A stretch of 8,002 bases of DNA from a virus (Duplodnaviria; Heunggongvirae; Uroviricota; Caudoviricetes): IMG/VR virus record IMGVR_UViG_2690316285_000016. The stretch is one strand, 5' to 3'. The notes under the pieces were generated by a model. It was not told where the DNA came from. It saw nothing but the letters and a program-made list of their open reading frames with translations, and made no database searches. The translations under genes were made by a program, and so were the position numbers. Positions 825 through 8,002 of this stretch are shown piece by piece. Position 1 is the first letter of the stretch. Each line of letters begins with the position of its first letter.

Positions 825-2678
825 TTATGATGATGCCGGTGCATTTATCTCCAGCACCAGACTTTCTATCTCAACGCCATACGCTGCATTTTTGGTAATA
901 TCCGTCAGCGTCAGCGCATTCAGCCCCAGTGTCAGACTGTCTTTTATGACCTGGAATGCCGGGCCAGCCACTCCATTCAGTTTCGGAGTAACCGTGGCAC
1001 TGCCGGCGGTGAACACCAGCTCCAGCGTCAGCCAGTCGTTACTGTAATTCCCGAACTCGCCCAACTTTGTGTTTCCTGCTTTCTTGTGATGCATCAGATT
1101 CAGTTTGCCGTCTGTGGTCTGGGTGAAGAACGACATCAGGAACGGGTTACCAGTCCCGGTCATCGCCACGACGTCAGGTAACGCTACATCGGTATACAGA
1201 TAAATTCCCAGACCGAACTGGTTGTTGGTCAGTGCGCCTGACAGTCGAAACTTACAGCTCAGTCTGCCACCCCGTGTCAGCAGGGAGACTGCGTCATCCA
1301 CCGGGCGCGTCAGGGACCAGGCTTTATTGCTCTGCTTGGTGATCTTAAATACACCATCTGACAACTGAACTCCGCCATTCTTAATGCTCCAGCCCTGCGC
1401 AGCAGCGTCTCCGGCTGTCGGCAACAGGGAGATTGTGCGTATGGATGCATCTTCAGACGGCCCCGATGGCGTGTCGCCGCCGGGCGAGGGTTTGATTTCC
1501 GGTGCCTTACCACTAATGAAGGCTAAGGTGCGACCGGCTACGTTCAGAATAGCAGTTGCCATACGATCGGGAATAATGCCACGACGCGCCCATGAGCTGA
1601 AATGCGTCGGGCGATTTGATGATACCCAGTTTTTGTTCGTTCGGGATGCCGAACCGTAATAACCAGACCCGGCAATATCAGGATCTTCTGACGGGTTGTT
1701 TGTCGGTGTATTAACTCCGCTACCATCGGTCATAAAGGGAACAAAATAAATCTGCTGGGATTCTTTACCTTTATATGCACCATATACCACTTCATATTGC
1801 GTACCGTGTTCTTGTTTCCACGCGTATGTCGTGTCGCCACAAATCCAGGGGACTGATGCCGGACTTCCACCGTGACACTGCGCCGCCAGCCCGGCAAGGT
1901 CAGCACGGAACTGCTGTACCATTGCAAGAAATGCTGCTGGCTGCTGGGCGTAACTGGCATTCGTCATATCGAATTCCCCCTGCATCCAGCATATCGCCAG
2001 CAAAACGTTTTTCGGGTTTTTCTGCAATGCTGCCTTCGTGCGGAAAAGCAGATCCTGATATAACGGCTTACCCACTCCCCAGCGAGCCGAATCCTGACTG
2101 GCCCCCGTGGACTCGCTGAATGTCCCCTCCGTGCCCTGGGTGAATGCCGAACCACCACAACAGCATGGTACCAGCAGGATCCCCGCATTATTAGGGATAT
2201 ACGGAAGCAGTTTTTTGGCAATATGTAAGCCCTGTCCGACACAGCCGTACTGCCCTTTGCTCAGGTCAGCCCGGGGATGGTTAATCGTACTCATATCCTG
2301 AACATCATGCAGACAATGGTCAGCAGGAATGATGTCGTTAAATACGCATACTTCACCACCGGGAGTCACTGTGTTACGACGGGCCAGTTGCTTAATGCGC
2401 GGATGGGGCGCATCGTATGAATCCGGAAGCGGAAGACCTTCACCGTAAGCCATGGCATTGGATTGCCCGGCCAGTACGATGACGTAGTACCACTCCGGCT
2501 CAGTTGCACCACTGACGACCACATCACCTTCTGCTGCAATCGCCTGCATCAGGGTATAAGGGGTTATGGCCACCGGACTACCAAACGGCTGCCAGCCCTC
2601 CTTCAGTTTTTGTGTCAGTCGTTTCGCAAGGTCTGACGGCGATGCCGCCCTGACCACGTCATAGTGTTTAAATGCCAT
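825..2678 (-). CDS. nanS-p: Prophage-encoded sialate (9-O-acetyl-Neu5Ac) O-acetylesterase, NanS-p-like; SGNH/SASA hydrolase core, 617 aa
   Basis: 617-aa ORF with SD GGGAGGA 5 nt before ATG 2678..2676. SGNH block I motif VIVLAGQSNAMAYGE (GQSN encoded at 2468..2457, candidate catalytic Ser73). N-terminus MAFKHYDVVRAASPSDLAKRL... is typical of the DUF1737 N-domain of NanS-p proteins in EHEC prophages. Position between the tRNA/stx slot and the holin matches Stx-phage synteny. Confidence 0.85.
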   Translation of the reverse strand: MAFKHYDVVRAASPSDLAKRLTQKLKEGWQPFGSPVAITPYTLMQAIAAEGDVVVSGATEPEWYYVIVLAGQSNAMAYGEGLPLPDSYDAPHPRIKQLARRNTVTPGGEVCVFNDIIPADHCLHDVQDMSTINHPRADLSKGQYGCVGQGLHIAKKLLPYIPNNAGILLVPCCCGGSAFTQGTEGTFSESTGASQDSARWGVGKPLYQDLLFRTKAALQKNPKNVLLAICWMQGEFDMTNASYAQQPAAFLAMVQQFRADLAGLAAQCHGGSPASVPWICGDTTYAWKQEHGTQYEVVYGAYKGKESQQIYFVPFMTDGSGVNTPTNNPSEDPDIAGSGYYGSASRTNKNWVSSNRPTHFSSWARRGIIPDRMATAILNVAGRTLAFISGKAPEIKPSPGGDTPSGPSEDASIRTISLLPTAGDAAAQGWSIKNGGVQLSDGVFKITKQSNKAWSLTRPVDDAVSLLTRGGRLSCKFRLSGALTNNQFGLGIYLYTDVALPDVVAMTGTGNPFLMSFFTQTTDGKLNLMHHKKAGNTKLGEFGNYSNDWLTLELVFTAGSATVTPKLNGVAGPAFQVIKDSLTLGLNALTLTDITKNAAYGVEIESLVLEINAPASS

Positions 2679-2871
2679 GAATCCTCCCGGCCGGGATAAT
2701 ATTGTGAGTAAAATAAGGAGCGGGCTGAAGTCCGGAAGTTACAGGACAATGGCAGAAGAGAGACGACAGCCCGCAATTCGAAAAAGACCGCGCAGTTGCG
2801 CAGAGTGATTACTATGGGGTATTATTCGCCAGCTGAAATATTACTTCACGTTTTATTGTTTATTCCTTGCC

Positions 2872-2900
2872 GCCCGCGTCTCCCAGCGCGGGCTTTTTTT
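2872..2900 (+). terminator. Plus-strand intrinsic terminator-like hairpin + T7 (duplicate at 4291-4319)
   Basis: GCCCGCG-tctcccag-CGCGGGC perfect 7-bp GC stem followed by TTTTTTT on the plus strand; identical copy in repeat 2. Confidence 0.5.
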
Positions 2901-2906
2901 GCCCAC

Positions 2907-2929
2907 AAGAAAACCCCTCCGGAGAGGGG
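2907..2929 (-). terminator. Minus-strand intrinsic terminator-like hairpin + U-tract (duplicate at 4326-4348)
   Basis: Minus RNA CCCCUC-UCCG-GAGGGG (6-bp GC stem, tetraloop) followed by UUUUCUU; lies 6 nt from the plus-strand terminator, forming a convergent pair. Confidence 0.5.
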
Positions 2930-3177
2930 CTAAAGCCGCGTATCTGTATCATCATGCACATGGTGCCGGGTGCCTCCCGGTGAGTTCAGCCCGGTGCCAC
3001 TAAACCCGCGTCATTCTCGTTTTGATAATCAGAGATTATACCGTCACCAGTCGCCCCTCCGCTCAGGGGGATTCACCATGCGAAATTTTTTTAACAAATG
3101 CCCAGTCTGACAGGCAACTGTCAACTTACTGAATTGTGAGCAACATAGCATTTAACGGGGAACCTGTTTTCTGCAGT

Positions 3178-3204
3178 AAAAAGGCCCACCGGAGCGGATG
3201 GGCC
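3178..3204 (-). terminator. Minus-strand hairpin + U5 (duplicate at 4597-4623)
   Basis: Minus RNA GGCCCA-(10-nt loop)-UGGGCC followed by UUUUUAC; forward A-run 3178-3182. Confidence 0.4.
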
Positions 3205-3395
3205 TGGAAGGATAGCGGTCATGTGATGCCGGTTTCCCGGTAACTCAGCACCGGTATCTGAGTCAACGTTTTCTCTACTGGGTCATTTCCGATACGCCCT
3301 GCCTGCTGACAGGCTTTCATCACATCTGAAAATATAGCACCCTGACTGATACTGTAGTACCTAAGGTTCCAGAAACTGTGATGTATCCGGCACAG

Positions 3396-3416
3396 AAAAG
3401 CCCCTCCGGAGAGGGC
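3396..3416 (-). terminator. Minus-strand hairpin + U4 (duplicate at 4815-4835); diverged homolog of the 2907-2929 element
   Basis: Minus RNA CCCUC-UCCG-GAGGG followed by GCUUUUCUG; weaker (5-bp stem). Confidence 0.35.
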
Positions 3417-3809
3417 TGGAGAGTGGCGCTATGTGCCATTGCATGATGCCGGGTGCCTCCCGGTGAATTCAGTACCAGCACCTGAATCCGCGATTATCCC
3501 ATATACCTACTCGCTGATTGCCCCTCCGCACAGGGGGATTCACCATGCCAGTTTCTTTTAACAAACTCCCCGCAAACCAGACAACAGTCAACCGCCTGAA
3601 TTGTGAAGTATTTAAAAATTTCTCCCGCTAACTGATACCCGGCTAACAGTCTGGCGTTTTCTTTTTCAGCAACGGGAAAGCAACAACCACCACACCCGCC
3701 ACCAGCACACCGTCAGCCAGCACTGACATTATCCGGCTGCTGCAATGCCATTCACAAAAACAGTAAGCAATCACTTTTTACCGTAACAGGTGATAATCCA
3801 GATATGTAT

Positions 3810-4136
3810 CTACCCCAGATGAGTAATCCGAAGTTCATCCATACCACAGGTCCTGGCTATTCTGTTGTACTCCTGAACAAGAGCAAATAATTCTGAATTA
3901 GCAACCATGAACTCATCGCAAACCCTCTGTATAGCATCACTATTCAGAATAATAACGTCTCTTCCCGAAAGACGATCAGGAGTACAGAACAAAACTGTCA
4001 AACGGCTGAAGGCCTTTGCTCGTGCTGCATTGACTATATCAATACGCTGCCTAAGGATGAAACACCCCGACGCCTCATCAATATTCACTCTACCCACACC
4101 ATATGAATGATAAATATTTAATGCTGAAAAAACCAT
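3810..4136 (-). CDS. Hypothetical protein; unrecognised cargo ORF in AT-rich insert (108 aa from first ATG at 4136; ORF-track 117 aa assumes TTG start at 4163)
   Basis: Only ORF over 100 codons in the 2.3 kb between tRNAs and nanS-p, and on the same strand as the late operon. No strong SD before either start; no motif I recognise. Local sequence is AT-rich (hand count 25 G+C in 90 nt over 4141-4230). Could be non-coding or a gene remnant. Confidence 0.35.
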   Translation of the reverse strand: MVFSALNIYHSYGVGRVNIDEASGCFILRQRIDIVNAARAKAFSRLTVLFCTPDRLSGRDVIILNSDAIQRVCDEFMVANSELFALVQEYNRIARTCGMDELRITHLG

Positions 4137-4230
4137 TAGACCGTATAACAAACACTCAATCAATACTTAACAGAACTTTTATTTTTGACAAACATAAAAT
4201 ATTTTCAACAATATCCTGAGCCAGGTATAT

Positions 4231-5036
4231 NTATGGGGTATTATTCGCCAGCTGAAATATTACTTCACGTTTTATTGTTTATTCCTTGCCGCCCGCGTCT
4301 CCCAGCGCGGGCTTTTTTTGCCCACAAGAAAACCCCTCCGGAGAGGGGCTAAAGCCGCGTATCTGTATCATCATGCACATGGTGCCGGGTGCCTCCCGGT
4401 GAGTTCAGCCCGGTGCCACTAAACCCGCGTCATTCTCGTTTTGATAATCAGAGATTATACCGTCACCAGTCGCCCCTCCGCTCAGGGGGATTCACCATGC
4501 GAAATTTTTTTAACAAATGCCCAGTCTGACAGGCAACTGTCAACTTACTGAATTGTGAGCAACATAGCATTTAACGGGGAACCTGTTTTCTGCAGTAAAA
4601 AGGCCCACCGGAGCGGATGGGCCTGGAAGGATAGCGGTCATGTGATGCCGGTTTCCCGGTAACTCAGCACCGGTATCTGAGTCAACGTTTTCTCTACTGG
4701 GTCATTTCCGATACGCCCTGCCTGCTGACAGGCTTTCATCACATCTGAAAATATAGCACCCTGACTGATACTGTAGTACCTAAGGTTCCAGAAACTGTGA
4801 TGTATCCGGCACAGAAAAGCCCCTCCGGAGAGGGCTGGAGAGTGGCGCTATGTGCCATTGCATGATGCCGGGTGCCTCCCGGTGAATTCAGTACCAGCAC
4901 CTGAATCCGCGATTATCCCATATACCTACTCGCTGATTGCCCCTCCGCACAGGGGGATTCACCATGCCAGTTTCTTTTAACAAACTCCCCGCAAAACAGA
5001 CAACTGTCAACCGTCTGAATTGTGAGACATTTAAAA
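4231..5036. repeat. Direct repeat copy 2 (~806 bp), abutting the tRNA-cluster terminator
   Basis: Same comparison as copy 1. Position 4231 is a single ambiguous n exactly at the copy boundary (copy 1 has c at 2812). Confidence 0.85.
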
Positions 5037-5058
5037 AAAAGGCCCGCAAAAGCGAGCC
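5033..5058 (-). terminator. Intrinsic terminator immediately downstream of the tRNA cluster (minus strand)
   Basis: Minus RNA GGCUCGC-UUUU-GCGGGCC (7-bp stem with one G-U) followed by UUUUUUUU (forward A8 at 5033-5040); starts 15 nt after the tRNA-Arg(UCU) 3' end. Confidence 0.5.
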
Positions 5059-5072
5059 AGGGAAAATAAGTG

Positions 5073-5149
5073 TGGCGCGTTGTACTGGATTCGAACCAGT
5101 GACCGATTGCTTAGAAGGCAATTGCTCTGTCCGGCTGAGCTAACAACGC
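5073..5149 (-). tRNA. tRNA-Arg (anticodon UCU), 77 nt with encoded CCA
   Basis: Minus-strand GCGTTGTTAGCTCAGCCGGACAGAGCAATTGCCTTCTAAGCAATCGGTCACTGGTTCGAATCCAGTACAACGCGCCA; cloverleaf built by hand: 7-bp acceptor stem, D stem GCTC/GAGC, anticodon loop CUUCUAA, T loop TTCGAAT. Third tRNA of an ileZ-argN-argO-like trio as found downstream of Q in Stx phages. Confidence 0.85.
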
Positions 5150-5162
5150 ATGATGCAGATAA

Positions 5163-5239
5163 TGGACCGCCATCGGGGACTTGAACCCCGCGCAGCCAGC
5201 TTCGAAGGCTGGCGCTCTTTCCTGATGAGCTAATGGCGG
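5163..5239 (-). tRNA. tRNA-Arg (anticodon UCG), 77 nt with encoded CCA
   Basis: Minus-strand CCGCCATTAGCTCATCAGGAAAGAGCGCCAGCCTTCGAAGCTGGCTGCGCGGGGTTCAAGTCCCCGATGGCGGTCCA; acceptor CCGCCAT/ATGGCGG, anticodon stem CCAGC/GCTGG with loop CUUCGAA, T stem CGGGG/CCCCG with TTCAAGT loop. Starts with C1-G72, which is unusual but pairs correctly. Confidence 0.8.
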
Positions 5240-5246
5240 TATGTGA

Positions 5247-5322
5247 TGGTGGCCCTTGCTGGATTTGAACCAGCGACCTGGCGATTATGAGTCGCTCGCT
5301 CTCACCACTGAGCTAAAGGGCC
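5247..5322 (-). tRNA. tRNA with CAU anticodon, most similar to tRNA-Ile2 (lysidine, ileX/ileZ-like); tRNA-Met cannot be excluded; 76 nt
   Basis: Minus-strand GGCCCTTTAGCTCAGTGGTGAGAGCGAGCGACTCATAATCGCCAGGTCGCTGGTTCAAATCCAGCAAGGGCCACCA; closely resembles E. coli ileX as I recall it; canonical cloverleaf with T loop TTCAAAT. Confidence 0.85.
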
Positions 5323-5362: not shown

Positions 5363-6421
5363 TCATCCGTTCTGGCTGACTAAATCCTGTACTTCCCGAA
5401 CCGTCTGCTCAAAACGTTCAGTCTCCAGCTCAACGCCAATTGCACGACGCCCGAGCGCCAGTGCCGCTTTCACTGTCGAACCCAACCCCATGAAAAAATC
5501 TGCAATCAGGTCACCCGGACGACTGCTAGCGCTGATTATCTGCTGCAGCATTTCTGCCGGTTTTTCGCACGGATGTTTCCCGGGATAGAACTGCACCGGT
5601 TTATGCGTCCACACATCGGTATACGGCACCTGCACCGTCACGCCAAAATACCGCCGCAGATGTTTATATTCACTCAGCAGCTCCGCATACTGCCGGTTCA
5701 GTGAGGTATACGTATCCACCAGCTGGTGGTGGAGCTTTTCCAGTTCACCACGCCGATGCTTCTCTTCTGCCACCCGGGCAAACAGCGCCTGTAATTTCAG
5801 ATAATCGCTTTCATTCGGCAACTGCCACTGACCGGCACTGAACCAGTGCGACACCATGTTTTTCTTTCCTGTGGCATCTGCAATCTGTTTTGCCGTTATC
5901 CCCAGGGCAGCTCGCGCATCACGAAAGTAAGAAATCAGCGGGGCCATCACATGCTGTTTCAGTGCACTGCCCTTCGCCGCATACCCGGCATCTTTCGGAC
6001 GATACGGCCCCTGATAATGTTCCGCGAACAGAATGCGCTCTGTGGCGGGGAAATACGCCCGCAGGCTTTCCTTGTTGCATCCGTTCCAGCGTCCGGACGG
6101 CTTCGCCCAGATAATATGGTTCAGCACACTGAAGCGTTCACGCATCATGATTTCGATATCAGATGCCAGGCGATGACCACAGAACAGGTAAAGACTTCCG
6201 GCAGGTTTCAGCACCCGCCAGAACTGCGCCAGACACTGGTCCAGCCACTTCAGGTAATCATCGTCGCCCTTCCACTGGTTATCCCAGCCCTCAGGCTTCA
6301 CTTTAAAGTACGGCGGGTCCGTGACTATCAGGTCAACAGAATTTTCGGGTAACGACCGGATAAATTCCAGGCAGTCGGCGTTGATTAACTCACAACTGGA
6401 TATTTTTACAGTATTAAGCAT
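5363..6421 (-). CDS. Orphan DNA methyltransferase, beta-class N6-adenine/N4-cytosine (N6_N4_Mtase fold), 352 aa
   Basis: Catalytic motif IV DPPY near the N-terminus (LIVTDPPYF) and SAM-binding motif I near the C-terminus (DFFMGLGST): the permuted order typical of beta-class amino-MTases. No restriction endonuclease partner in the window. ATG 6421..6419 overlaps the upstream gene's TAA (6416..6414): ATGCTTAA. Confidence 0.85.
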   Translation of the reverse strand: MLNTVKISSCELINADCLEFIRSLPENSVDLIVTDPPYFKVKPEGWDNQWKGDDDYLKWLDQCLAQFWRVLKPAGSLYLFCGHRLASDIEIMMRERFSVLNHIIWAKPSGRWNGCNKESLRAYFPATERILFAEHYQGPYRPKDAGYAAKGSALKQHVMAPLISYFRDARAALGITAKQIADATGKKNMVSHWFSAGQWQLPNESDYLKLQALFARVAEEKHRRGELEKLHHQLVDTYTSLNRQYAELLSEYKHLRRYFGVTVQVPYTDVWTHKPVQFYPGKHPCEKPAEMLQQIISASSRPGDLIADFFMGLGSTVKAALALGRRAIGVELETERFEQTVREVQDLVSQNG

Positions 6422-6815
6422 GGATCATTAAGCCTGTCTCTGATAGGCTCATTCTGCTTTTGCGCAAAGCAGTGGGCCTGAGGTTTGCTTGTGAACCCAA
6501 CGCATGAGNNNNNNNNNNNNNNNNNNNNNNNNNNNNNNNNNNNNNNNNNNNNNNNNNNNNNNNNNNNNNNNNNNNNNNNNNNNNNNNNNNNNNNNNNNNN
6601 NNNNNNNNNNNNNNNNNNNNNNNNNNNNNNNNNNNNNNNNNNNNNNNNNNNNNNNNNNNNNNNNNNNNNNNNNNNNNNNNNNNNNNNNNNNNNNNNNNNN
6701 NNNNNNNNNNNNNNNNNNNNNNNNNNNNNNNNNNNNNNNNNNNNNNNNNNNNNNNNNNNNNNNNNNNNNNNNNNNNNNNNCTGGCGGTTTCTGTCATATC
6801 CTGCTGTTTTAGCAT
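6414..6815 (-). CDS. Hypothetical protein upstream of and overlapping the methylase; interior N-masked (only MLKQQDMTETA... and ...HALGSQANLRPTALRKSRMSLSETGLMIHA visible)
   Basis: Candidate start ATG 6815..6813 preceded by AAGGAAAAG SD-like sequence; C-terminal fragment 6508..6417 ends in a TAA that overlaps the methylase start. Both visible ends are in the same frame only if the N-run length (272) is exact, which cannot be verified. Confidence 0.3.
   Translation of the reverse strand: MLKQQDMTETAXXXXXXXXXXXXXXXXXXXXXXXXXXXXXXXXXXXXXXXXXXXXXXXXXXXXXXXXXXXXXXXXXXXXXXXXXXXXXXXXXXXXXXXXXXXXHALGSQANLRPTALRKSRMSLSETGLMIHA
6509..6780. other. Run of 272 N (masked or unresolved sequence)
   Basis: Literal n characters in the sequence. 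Confidence 0.99.
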
Positions 6816-6847: not shown

Positions 6848-7585
6848 NNNNNNNNNNNNNNNNNNNNNNNNNNNNNNNNNNNNNNNNNNNNNNNNNNNNN
6901 NNNNNNNNNNNNNNNNNNNNNNNNNNNNNNNNNNNNNNNNNNNNNNNNNNNNNNNNNNNNNNNNNNNNNNNNNNNNNNNNNNNNNNNNNNNNNNNNNNNN
7001 NNNNNNNNNNNNNNNNNNNNNNNNNNNNNNNNNNNNNNNNNNNNNNNNNNNNNNNNNNNNNNNNNNNNNNNNNNNNNNNNNNNNNNNNNNNNNNNNNNNN
7101 NNNNNNNNNNNNNNNNNNNNNNNNNNNNNNNNNNNNNNNNNNNNNNNNNNNNNNNNNNNNNNNNNNNNNNNNNNNNNNNNNNNNNNNNNNNNNNNNNNNN
7201 NNNNNNNNNNNNNNNNNNNNNNNNNNNNNNNNNNNNNNNNNNNNNNNNNNNNNNNNNNNNNNNNNNNNNNNNNNNNNNNNNNNNNNNNNNNNNNNNNNNN
7301 NNNNNNNNNNNNNNNNNNNNNNNNNNNNNNNNNNNNNNNNNNNNNNNNNNNNNNNNNNNNNNNNNNNNNNNNNNNNNNNNNNNNNNNNNNNNNNNNNNNN
7401 NNNNNNNNNNNNNNNNNNNNNNNNNNNNNNNNNNNNNNNNNNNNNNNNNNNNNNNNNNNNNNNNNNNNNNNNNNNNNNNNNNNNNNNNNNNNNNNNNNNN
7501 NNNNNNNNNNNNNNNNNNNNNNNNNNNNNNNNNNNNNNNNNNNNNNNNNNNNNNNNNNNNNNNNNNNNNNNNNNNNNNNNNNNNN
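6848..7585. other. Run of 738 N (masked or unresolved sequence); likely hides the Q 3' end and the late promoter/qut region
   Basis: Literal n characters; every ORF-track protein containing X runs is an artefact of these blocks. Confidence 0.99.
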
Positions 7586-8002
7586 ACCTAGTTACCTTTT
7601 TTAACTGCCGCTCAGCCCATGCTTCTTCAATATCAAACCGGGTCACCAGCGCATCATAAAATTTCTTAACTGTTTTTTCCCATGACGCGCGTGTTATCTG
7701 GTTTGTCACCTCGCATATAGCATTAAATGCCTCCGTTGATGGTAGTCTTTCATAGCCACGACCACCACAACGCTGGCAGTCTCTGATAACAGGCATACCA
7801 CGTTTTACCGACTCTTCACGATGAATGGCGACACCACGCCCACGGCAATCCTTACAGGCGGTGGAAACCTCACCCTTTCCGCCACACTCCGGACAGGCAA
7901 CTTTTACCACCTCCCTGACTTTTTTCCATTCTTCCCAGTAAGACGGATACACACCTTTCGTACACTTTGCCCATACCGGCGGCTTACCATCCGGATACTG
8001 GA
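7586..8002 (-). CDS. Partial CDS (5' end beyond window, 3' end runs into N-mask): Q-family late antiterminator-like protein with three DnaJ-type CxxCxGxG zinc-finger motifs
   Basis: Minus-strand frame open to the window edge: ...QYPDGKPPVWAKCTKGVYPSYWEEWKKVREVVKVACPECGGKGEVSTACKDCRGRGVAIHREESVKRGMPVIRDCQRCGGRGYERLPSTEAFNAICEVTNQITRASWEKTVKKFYDALVTRFDIEEAWAERQLKKVTR. The C-terminal pattern (C.RC.G.GY.R.P ... W..TVK..YDALV ... VTR) matches my recollection of QuuD/QuuQ-type Q antiterminators. The ORF-track 'Met' at 7952 is GTG and is not a supported start. Confidence 0.5.

Follow-up and report, generated by a model that had tools for sequence, protein, structure and literature searches.

The Q-to-lysis interval and its repeated modules

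The window considered here is the whole 8,002-nucleotide stretch of the Caudoviricetes record IMGVR_UViG_2690316285_000016. The flanking genes, identified with Pfam and ARAGORN, are all encoded on the minus strand, and the gene order is Q antiterminator, DNA methylase, tRNAs (the ileZ-argN-argO set), small RNA (sRNA) arrays, sialate esterase, holin and DUF1327 (Table 1). The locus is the moron/stx insertion slot of a lambdoid prophage; at a Stx2a phage locus (L003), this interval is occupied by stx2AB, and a copy of the STnc100 sRNA lies just downstream of stx2B.

Within this slot, a repeat finder recovers three diverged modules, denoted A, B and C below, near 2905, 3175 and 3395, in the order and at the coordinates proposed in a sequence-only reading of this DNA, along with every one of the ordered shared blocks described there (a GC hairpin, a CCGGG/CCCGG motif and an ATG-leader block). 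The GC hairpin (CACAAGAAAACCCCTCCGGAGAGGG and variants) is located at 2904, 3174 and 3391 and again at 4323, 4593 and 4810; CATGRTGCCGGGTGCCTCCCGGTGARTTCAG is found at 2959 and 3442 (94% identical), with a shorter version, TGATGCCGGTTTCC, at 3224, and an 88-nt block, GCCCCTCCGC..CTGAATTGTGA, at 3053 and 3520 (78% identical). The complete three-module stretch 2905-3617 recurs at 4324-5036, 1,419 nt downstream.

The functional strand of the modules is the minus strand, not the plus strand on which they had originally been read. On the minus strand, the GC hairpin with its A/U tract is a Rho-independent terminator that forms the 3' end of each module, the CCGGG/CCCGG motif comprises hairpin P4 and the 3' strand of the closing helix of a conserved RNA fold, and the string ATG...tttaacaaa...gtcaac...ctgaattgtga is the reverse complement of the leader and start region at the 5' end of the sRNA, the 5' strand of helix P1 and hairpin P2. 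The short ORFs that follow the ATGs are accordingly antisense to the sRNA leader. Terminator-like sites are numerous in the region (22, compared to 3.1 expected). On the opposite strand, the array is adjoined by a convergent RNA gene that ends back to back with module A, is 93.8% identical to the minus strand of the Sakai Sp4 locus (L020, 2432-2735), matches the EcOnc08/21/42 probe at 2792-2826 with 5 mismatches, and has its own plus-strand terminator at 2872-2893 followed by T7.

Table 1. Positions of genes, modules and RNA elements in the window
Feature	Position	Strand	Remarks
Q antiterminator	7587-8000	-	Pfam
N6/N4 DNA methylase (N6_N4)	5363-6421	-	Pfam
Three tRNAs, anticodons CAT, TCG, TCT	5073-5322	-	ARAGORN, Rfam
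Module C, second copy	4811-5025	-	RNA body identical to the first up to 4995; few leader substitutions; RF02076 match 4807-4996, 123.6 bits
Module B, second copy	4597-4758	-	Identical to the first; RF02076 match at relaxed threshold 4595-4768, 30.1 bits
Module A, second copy	4324-4558	-	Identical to the first; RF02076 match 4320-4529, 161 bits
Module C, EcOnc05 type	3392-3606	-	~212 nt; RF02076 match 3388-3577, 122.5 bits, E 9e-28
Block equivalent to TCACAATTC, C	3598-3606	-
Structured core, C	3441-3548	-	P1 3541-3548/3441-3448, P2 3521-3537, P3 3465-3489, P4 3449-3463
Linker equivalent, C	3418-3440	-	..CACUCUCC
Terminator of C, intrinsic	3394-3417	-	Terminator scan
Block equivalent to TCACAATTC, B	3373-3381	-	TCACAGTTT
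Module B, divergent STnc100-like	3178-3339	-	Extended -10 to terminator; RF02076 match at relaxed threshold 3176-3349, 30.1 bits, E 4e-4; nhmmer 8e-7
Extended -10 of B	3331-3339	-	TGCTATATT; adjoins P1
Structured core, B	3220-3326	-	P1 3318-3326/3220-3228, P2 3301-3314, P3 3242-3264, P4 3229-3240
Linker equivalent, B	3206-3219	-	CCGCUAUCCUUCC
Terminator of B, intrinsic	3178-3205	-	AGGCCCATCCGCTCCGGTGGGCC + UUUUU; 9-bp stem, U5
Module A, EcOnc27/sRNA103 type	2905-3139	-	~230 nt if start at TCACAATTC block; RF02076 match 2901-3110, 161 bits, E ~1e-37 to 4e-37
Conserved block TCACAATTC, inferred 5' end of long form of A	3131-3139	-	Conservation and northern sizes
Structured core, A	2958-3081	-	P1 3074-3081 (5')/2958-2965 (3'), P2 3054-3070, P3 2982-3007, P4 2966-2980
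Variable single-stranded linker, candidate seed, A	2932-2957	-	Between P1 and terminator
Terminator of A, intrinsic	2907-2931	-	AGCCCCTCTCCGGAGGGG + UUUUCUU
Convergent partner RNA, EcOnc08/21/42 homologue	2602-2900	+	Ends back to back with module A
DUF1737-SASA-DUF6645 sialate esterase, NanS-p type	825-2678	-	Pfam
P21-type holin, then DUF1327	beyond esterase	-	Pfam

The two arrays include a perfect duplication: positions 2813-3576 and 4232-4995 are 100% identical over 764 nt, and a lone N at 4231 lies exactly at the junction. The sequence to the left of this N agrees with that of strain 2D, in which it is a tRNA that follows; a colinear 2.4-kb match is absent from all the best-matching complete E. 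coli genomes listed. The duplication may result from recent recombination between two prophages or from an assembly join or artefact; its origin leaves the finding of three modules unaffected.

Parts of the 2.4-kb region are matched in 2,815 of the 5,426 complete E. coli genomes, and A-like sequences are present in 354 phage records, mostly those of Stx phages, being unannotated among the matches listed. A strict two-block pattern scan of genome contigs yielded 10 loci, so the taxonomic breadth observed is a lower bound. The three-gene array is not confined to this locus: UTI89 and strain 2D each contain one A-B-C triplet in the same place, strains S88 and ATCC 11775 carry the array too, and the order X, B-like, C-like is found in UTI89 and 2D as well as in ECONIH6, E. 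albertii and phage PhiR5_2. In Fels-1, three STnc100 matches are located between Q and the holin. Among the matches listed, PGAP and phage records annotate these genes as 'none' or 'hypothetical protein'; gene callers place spurious plus-strand ORFs on the sRNA genes.

Relationship to the STnc100 family and the consensus fold

Modules A and C, in both copies, match the full length (positions 1-206) of the Rfam model RF02076, STnc100 ('Gammaproteobacterial sRNA STnc100'), on the minus strand and with scores far above the gathering score of 47 bits (Table 1). Judging by their sequences, they are members of a known family in a known genomic niche, and we consider it very probable that each of the three modules is an STnc100-family sRNA gene on the minus strand, co-directional with the phage late operon, in the moron/stx slot. 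The sequence-only reading, which did not recognise the modules as a named element, had itself set a match to an element with established annotation against its proposal; the STnc100 match is of this kind, and orthologues have been published as EcOnc27/sRNA103 and EcOnc05, so the claim of novelty falls. Its description of the modules as cis-regulatory or small-RNA units rather than genes was correct as to the small-RNA class, but the modules are sRNA genes, i.e., more than cis-regulatory units.

The orthologous relationships are close. Module C matches the EcOnc05 locus of Sakai Sp4 in 211 of 216 positions (97.7%); EcOnc05 was detected as an Hfq-CRAC peak and gives a northern band of ~222 nt (PMC4104026, Table S2). 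For module A, identity is 86-87% with the copy that directly follows stx2B in the Stx2a phage Stx2_95 and 76% with the EcOnc27 locus of Sakai Sp5. EcOnc27 (= sRNA103) is Hfq-bound, with forms of 235 and 247 nt, the latter of which is destabilised in the absence of hfq (PMC7873438), and it overlaps an STnc100 prediction (PMC12711010). Strain EDL933 encodes 11 STnc100 copies, one of which, STnc100_4, has been confirmed by northern blot (PMC5331693), and STnc100 is among the most frequently annotated sRNAs, with the function not given (Boutet et al., PMC9029176). Modules A and C have the same fold, orientation relative to the late operon and 3' terminator as these RNAs (EcOnc27/sRNA103, EcOnc05 and EDL933 STnc100_1-STnc100_11) and likewise lie between Q/tRNAs (or stx) and esterase/holin, with no essential difference; the late-region location, co-oriented with Q and the lysis genes, is evident from the Pfam matches, the tRNAs and the annotated homologous loci. 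What distinguishes the present locus is that three paralogues are arranged head to tail, that the triplet occurs twice, and that module B scores below the family threshold. In essence, then, the finding is an ordinary one: A and C belong to a catalogued family whose residence in the Stx/moron slot has been on record since 2014.

The RNA bodies of the modules are 68% (A/C), 58% (B/C) and 54% (A/B) identical, and in a distance tree module A groups with the EcOnc27 type and module C with the EcOnc05 type, whereas B stands apart. These separate groupings indicate that the modules are old paralogues rather than products of a recent local triplication, in agreement with the earlier view of them as diverged copies of an older unit.

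The fold was derived from an alignment of 20 homologues from E. coli, E. albertii, E. ruysiae, Shigella, Salmonella phage Fels-1, Phytobacter and Enterobacter, with PasD2 and module B included. In 5' to 3' order, the consensus consists of P1, P2, a variable insert, P3, P4, a variable linker and the terminator; P1, the closing helix of 7-8 bp, has the consensus CAUGGUG/CACCAUG, P2 CCCC..GGGG and P4 CCGGG-AGGCA-CCCGG. Across the alignment, 93% of the cells are paired, compared to 37-53% when the partners are slid, both sides change in 17 of the 27 pairs (4-9 in the slid controls), and none of 500 column shuffles reached the observed values. Covariation is seen in P1, P3 and the terminator. In P1, for example, the pairing CAUGGUG/CACCAUG of module A is replaced by AUGUGAUG/CAUCACAU in B and by CUACAGUG/CACUGCAG in Fels-1, i.e., the compensatory changes expected of a conserved STnc100 structure. 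As the sequence-only reading had anticipated, conservation is at the level of RNA and structure and not of protein; neither the lengths nor the sequences of the ORFs are conserved. P2 and P4, in contrast to the covarying helices, are almost invariant in sequence across genera, including their loops (GUGCGG and AGGCA, respectively), which makes them uninformative for covariation; this near-invariance exceeds what structure alone or a plain Hfq-sRNA model explains.

The minimum free energy folds of B and C reproduce the family architecture. However, for RNAs of this composition the folding energies are ordinary (z = -1.0, -2.6 for B and -0.25 for C), so thermodynamic stability was dropped as evidence and the case for structure rests on covariation. 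Two further candidate elements were rejected. No covariation accompanies a possible pairing between AAUUCAG in the leader and CUGAAUU in the 3' strand of P3, the P3 strand being CUGAACU or CCGAACU in A and the homologous locus L014 while the leader is unchanged, and a TGACAG..CTGTCA palindrome in the leader of A, considered as an operator or hairpin, is not conserved in C. The linker next to the terminator is the least conserved transcribed segment of the alignment; it is C/U-rich in B (CUAUCCUUCC) and C (CACUCUCC), and in the STnc100 copy downstream of stx2B it is the segment targeted by the EcOnc27 northern probe.

The divergent module B

Module B falls below the RF02076 gathering score (30.1 vs 47 bits), and its match to the model appears only at a relaxed threshold. 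Nevertheless, an nhmmer search of 208 kb with a profile of 18 homologues that included neither B nor PasD detects it at E = 8e-7, which supports its homology to the other modules. From its sequence, B is best described as a divergent STnc100 relative rather than a formal member of the family.

We tentatively propose, with some hesitation, that B represents an unannotated third sub-family of STnc100/PasD, i.e., a functional sRNA of ~150-200 nt with an anti-Shine-Dalgarno-like linker (CUAUCCUUCC), encoded by the middle gene of a conserved three-gene array (E. coli, E. albertii, PhiR5_2). B-like sequences are present in 673 of the 5,426 complete E. coli genomes, with no matching annotation among the matches listed. 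If this reading is correct, the array would be the way in which these phages diversify seeds on a constant scaffold, and the cross-genus invariance of P2 and P4 would point to a partner other than Hfq.

The low score could also mean that B is a decayed STnc100 pseudogene, such that the locus comprises two functional sRNA genes and a relic, and this would fit with the lack of the long conserved leader and with the small number of B-like phage records (5, compared to 354 A-like ones). We regard such decay as rather unlikely: neither allele of B has lost the extended -10 (TGCTATATT), and the four helices and a strong terminator are all preserved. The two alleles, which account for the 673 genomes, differ chiefly by changes in P2 and the terminator that maintain pairing, and B is the middle gene in E. 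coli and E. albertii as well as in phage PhiR5_2.

An assignment of B to the PasD family was ruled out by the alignment, in which the 3' halves are unrelated, and by BLAST, which detects only 17-42 nt of 5' similarity between the modules and PasD of E2348/69. A 2026 preprint of the Storz laboratory links STnc100 to PasD and proposes a common ancestor (10.64898/2026.05.13.724894). PasD1 and PasD2 of EPEC E2348/69 (= EcOnc13 type) are Hfq-dependent sRNAs of this sister family with RIL-seq targets (PMC8550237). They share with the STnc100 family the 5' half, which comprises GCAUGGUGAAUCC.., a hairpin resembling P2 and the P1 helix, as well as Hfq dependence and the position upstream of a sialate esterase, and PasD2 itself scores 41.4 bits against the STnc100 model. 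By contrast, the 3' half of PasD and its predicted seed UUCCUUGUGAG, which lies next to the terminator at the position equivalent to the linker (PMC8550237, fig. S5), are absent from all modules of the window, and PasD has a short leader, with a TTGACT-N17-TTAAAA promoter directly before P1 and an RNA-seq 5' end at GCAUGG that gives an RNA of 172 nt.

Transcription, proposed function and related systems

Each module probably has its own promoter, although a consensus sigma-70 scan detected no strong site at the modules. The TCACAATTCAG block, located 55-60 nt upstream of GCATGG and preceded by TTAAAT- or TATGTT-like -10 elements, is kept in most Escherichia STnc100 copies, including A and C. 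A start at the conserved block predicts ~231 nt for EcOnc27 and ~212 nt for EcOnc05, and the northern bands are 235/247 and ~222 nt, respectively. By analogy with these orthologues, and given the conservation of the block, A and C probably start there as well. An alternative promoter, TTGCCT-N18-TAAAAA, suggested by homology to the PasD 5' end, was rejected for A and C, as the northern sizes favour the TCACAATTC block; a short form may also occur.

We propose the following model. Each gene would be transcribed from its own sigma-70 promoter, A and C from the TCACAAUUC block to give RNAs of ~212-230 nt, and B from the extended -10 next to P1 to give an RNA of ~150 nt; in the lysogen, every transcript would end at its own terminator. 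The RNAs are predicted to be Hfq-dependent base-pairing regulators that act in trans on host and prophage mRNAs. Production in lysogens and Hfq binding are here extrapolated from the literature on the orthologues. After correction of a ~135-nt shift of the Tree et al. 2014 coordinates at Sp5 relative to NC_002695.2 (made by locating AsxR and the EcOnc27 probe), the EcOnc27 Hfq peak covers the 3' 80 nt, i.e., P4, the linker and the terminator. The constant structured domain would serve as a scaffold, with the diverged C/U-rich linker beside the terminator as the candidate specificity seed and the conserved 5' end (CACAAUUCAG) as a second candidate. Because the scaffold is constant and the linkers have diverged, A, B and C in tandem would present three different seeds on a common scaffold. 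The series of terminators might, as a by-product, silence the downstream lysis genes unless Q-modified RNA polymerase reads through.

This by-product could be imagined to be the principal function, with the modules acting mainly in cis as a stack of terminators or insulators in the late transcript and the small RNAs being by-products, like StxS of tR'. Indeed, seven minus-strand terminators occur in series between the tRNAs and the esterase (the six of the modules and one at 5058-5041), all of them co-oriented with Q and the lysis genes, and StxS is a precedent for an sRNA produced by early termination (PMC7547250). Terminators, however, need neither covarying P1 and P3 nor invariant P2 and P4 upstream, the 5' leader and start region of each module are conserved as well, and in uninduced lysogens the orthologues are present as abundant discrete RNAs bound to Hfq (PMC4104026, PMC8550237). 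A primarily cis-acting role thus appears improbable.

Even less credible is the notion that the conserved blocks encode small proteins, either from the plus-strand ATGs or from the AUG in GCAUGGUGAAUCC on the minus strand (MVNPP...). On both strands, start codons do fall within conserved blocks; some EDL933 STnc100 copies have reported ribosome coverage values of 1.5-3.2 (PMC5331693), and PGAP annotates a partial plus-strand pseudogene ('hypothetical protein') here. However, direct reading of the plus-strand ORFs that begin at 3078 and 3545 gives the 10 and 28 codons noted previously, with neither length nor sequence conserved; on the minus strand, the ORF of A has 11 codons and that of C 25, while B has an unrelated one of 33; neither Fels-1 copy retains the minus-strand AUG, the changes that replace it leaving P1 paired; the indels of the variable regions are not multiples of three; and the substitutions follow the covariation of pairs. 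Finally, an origin as dispersed REP/BIME- or MITE-like repeats or as tRNA-derived sequence, which the multicopy nature of the family and the adjoining tRNA genes might bring to mind, can practically be dismissed: ARAGORN and Rfam RF00005 find only the three true tRNAs at 5073-5322, no inverted repeats, and hence no terminal ones, were detected in the region, and every copy in annotated loci, rather than being dispersed in the REP-like manner that had been considered, sits in the lambdoid prophage slot between Q and lysis.

Returning to the interpretation of the modules as sRNA genes, several known systems offer comparisons. Eight Sakai prophages have been described to carry convergent pairs of Hfq-bound sRNAs at the moron insertion site, 3' of PR' (Tree et al. 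2014, PMC4104026); these pairs, e.g., AsxR with EcOnc27, were named dyads in a review (PMC7873438). The AsxR/EcOnc27 and AgvB/EcOnc06 dyads resemble the present locus in that the 3' end of an STnc100-type RNA on the late strand abuts that of a second RNA, Hfq-bound in the dyads, encoded on the other strand; they differ in that the partner there is AsxR or AgvB and here a longer RNA of the EcOnc08/21/42 type, and in that two further STnc100 paralogues precede the dyad here. AsxR (RF02703), AgvB (RF02702) and Esr41 (RF02676) were rejected as identities of the modules or the partner, as no Rfam match was obtained between 2700 and 5100 even at E<=10, whereas the AsxR model detected its target in L014, which served as a positive control. 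Adjacent paralogous sRNA genes that have their own terminators and combine a shared with a differing part are likewise known from OmrA/OmrB, PrrF1/PrrF2 and Qrr1-5. In those cases, the seed is conserved and the genes belong to the core, whereas here the scaffold is conserved, the presumed seed varies and the genes are prophage cargo.

The practical value of these observations lies in the annotation of sRNA genes that are unlabelled by PGAP and in phage records. STnc100 members are not known to have a validated direct target; the reported effects, on fimZ and espA, are indirect ones of overexpression (cited in PMC12711010 and PMC7873438). The combination of a constant scaffold with a variable linker in a tandem triplet suggests a simple way to locate the STnc100 seed. 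According to a recent preprint, Pas/STnc100-type copies derive from repeated phage acquisition and not from tandem duplication; this locus, Fels-1 and E. albertii indicate that head-to-tail arrays of old paralogues exist too.

The 764-nt duplication and its contents

The stretches 2813-3576 and 4232-4995 form a perfect duplication of 764 nt, the exact left junction of which is marked by a lone N at position 4231. To the left of this N, the sequence runs on as in strain 2D, a carrier of a comparable sRNA array, where a tRNA comes next. The duplicated layout has no colinear match in any best-matching complete E. coli genome among the matches listed. The duplication may stem from two prophage loci joined during assembly, or from very recent recombination. 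The second repeat retains only the end of the plus-strand RNA gene that faces module A, one of the STnc100-type sRNA genes. Together with the sigma-70-like promoter ahead of it, this truncated copy could yield a shorter RNA (~100 nt) starting at a new 5' end.

Between the two repeats lie a mini-protein gene and an ORF, both on the minus strand (see table); no gene is annotated by PGAP in the matching stretch of strain 2D. A DUF3927 gene also adjoins PasD2, an Hfq-dependent sRNA of a family sister to STnc100, in E2348/69, and the sRNA array in ECONIH6.

Features of the window discussed in the text
Feature	Position	Strand	Remarks
RNA gene	2602-2900	+	convergent with module A; homologue of Sakai Sp4 EcOnc08/21/42
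Strong terminator of this RNA gene	2872-2893, then T7	+	
Hairpin P4	2966-2980 and 3449-3463		STnc100 modules
Hairpin P2	3054-3070 and 3521-3537		STnc100 modules
DUF3927 mini-protein gene	3643-3774	-	43 aa
AT-rich ORF	3810-4163	-	117 aa, TTG start; without Pfam family
Sigma-70-like promoter	4185-4212		TTGACA-16-AACAAT
Truncated copy of RNA gene	4232-4319	+	last ~88 nt only
Intrinsic terminator of tRNA cluster	5041-5058	-	3' of tRNAs
tRNA cluster	5073-5322	-	anticodons CAT, TCG, TCT
Long N runs (masked)	6509-6780 and 6848-7585		between methylase and Q antiterminator

RNA genes and their homologs

By sequence comparison, the complete plus-strand RNA gene shares 93.8% identity with the EcOnc08/21/42 locus of Sakai Sp4, the RNA of which is Hfq-bound and ~271 nt long; the gene runs antisense across the start codon of the esterase (2678). 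Within the STnc100 fold, the hairpins P2 and P4, together with their loops, are near-constant in sequence across Escherichia, Salmonella, Phytobacter and Enterobacter, and the adjacent helices covary. A protein or tertiary contact could be the cause of this constraint.

In Escherichia sp. MOD1-EC7003, the copy at 6113-6329 of the homologous locus has a promoter and terminator of the PasD type, yet scores 98 bits as STnc100, and is an intermediate linking the two families. An E. coli Stx2-phage STnc100 copy (207.7 bits), located beside AsxR, was identified in NZ_JPLE01000080.1, an 888-bp contig labelled 'Xanthomonas pisi', which almost certainly reflects contamination of that assembly. The Sp5 EcOnc coordinates in Table S2 of PMC4104026 lie ~135 nt below those of NC_002695.2, whereas the Sp4 coordinates agree; uncorrected, the former misplace AsxR and EcOnc27 on the current RefSeq record.

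The tRNA cluster and the masked region

The three anticodons are those of the ileZ-argN-argO set, which is characteristic of Stx-type phages. The masked runs hide the late promoter region, the expected place of PR', qut, tR' and any StxS-like RNA. The terminator of the tRNA cluster itself gives a partial, weak STnc100 match (15 bits).
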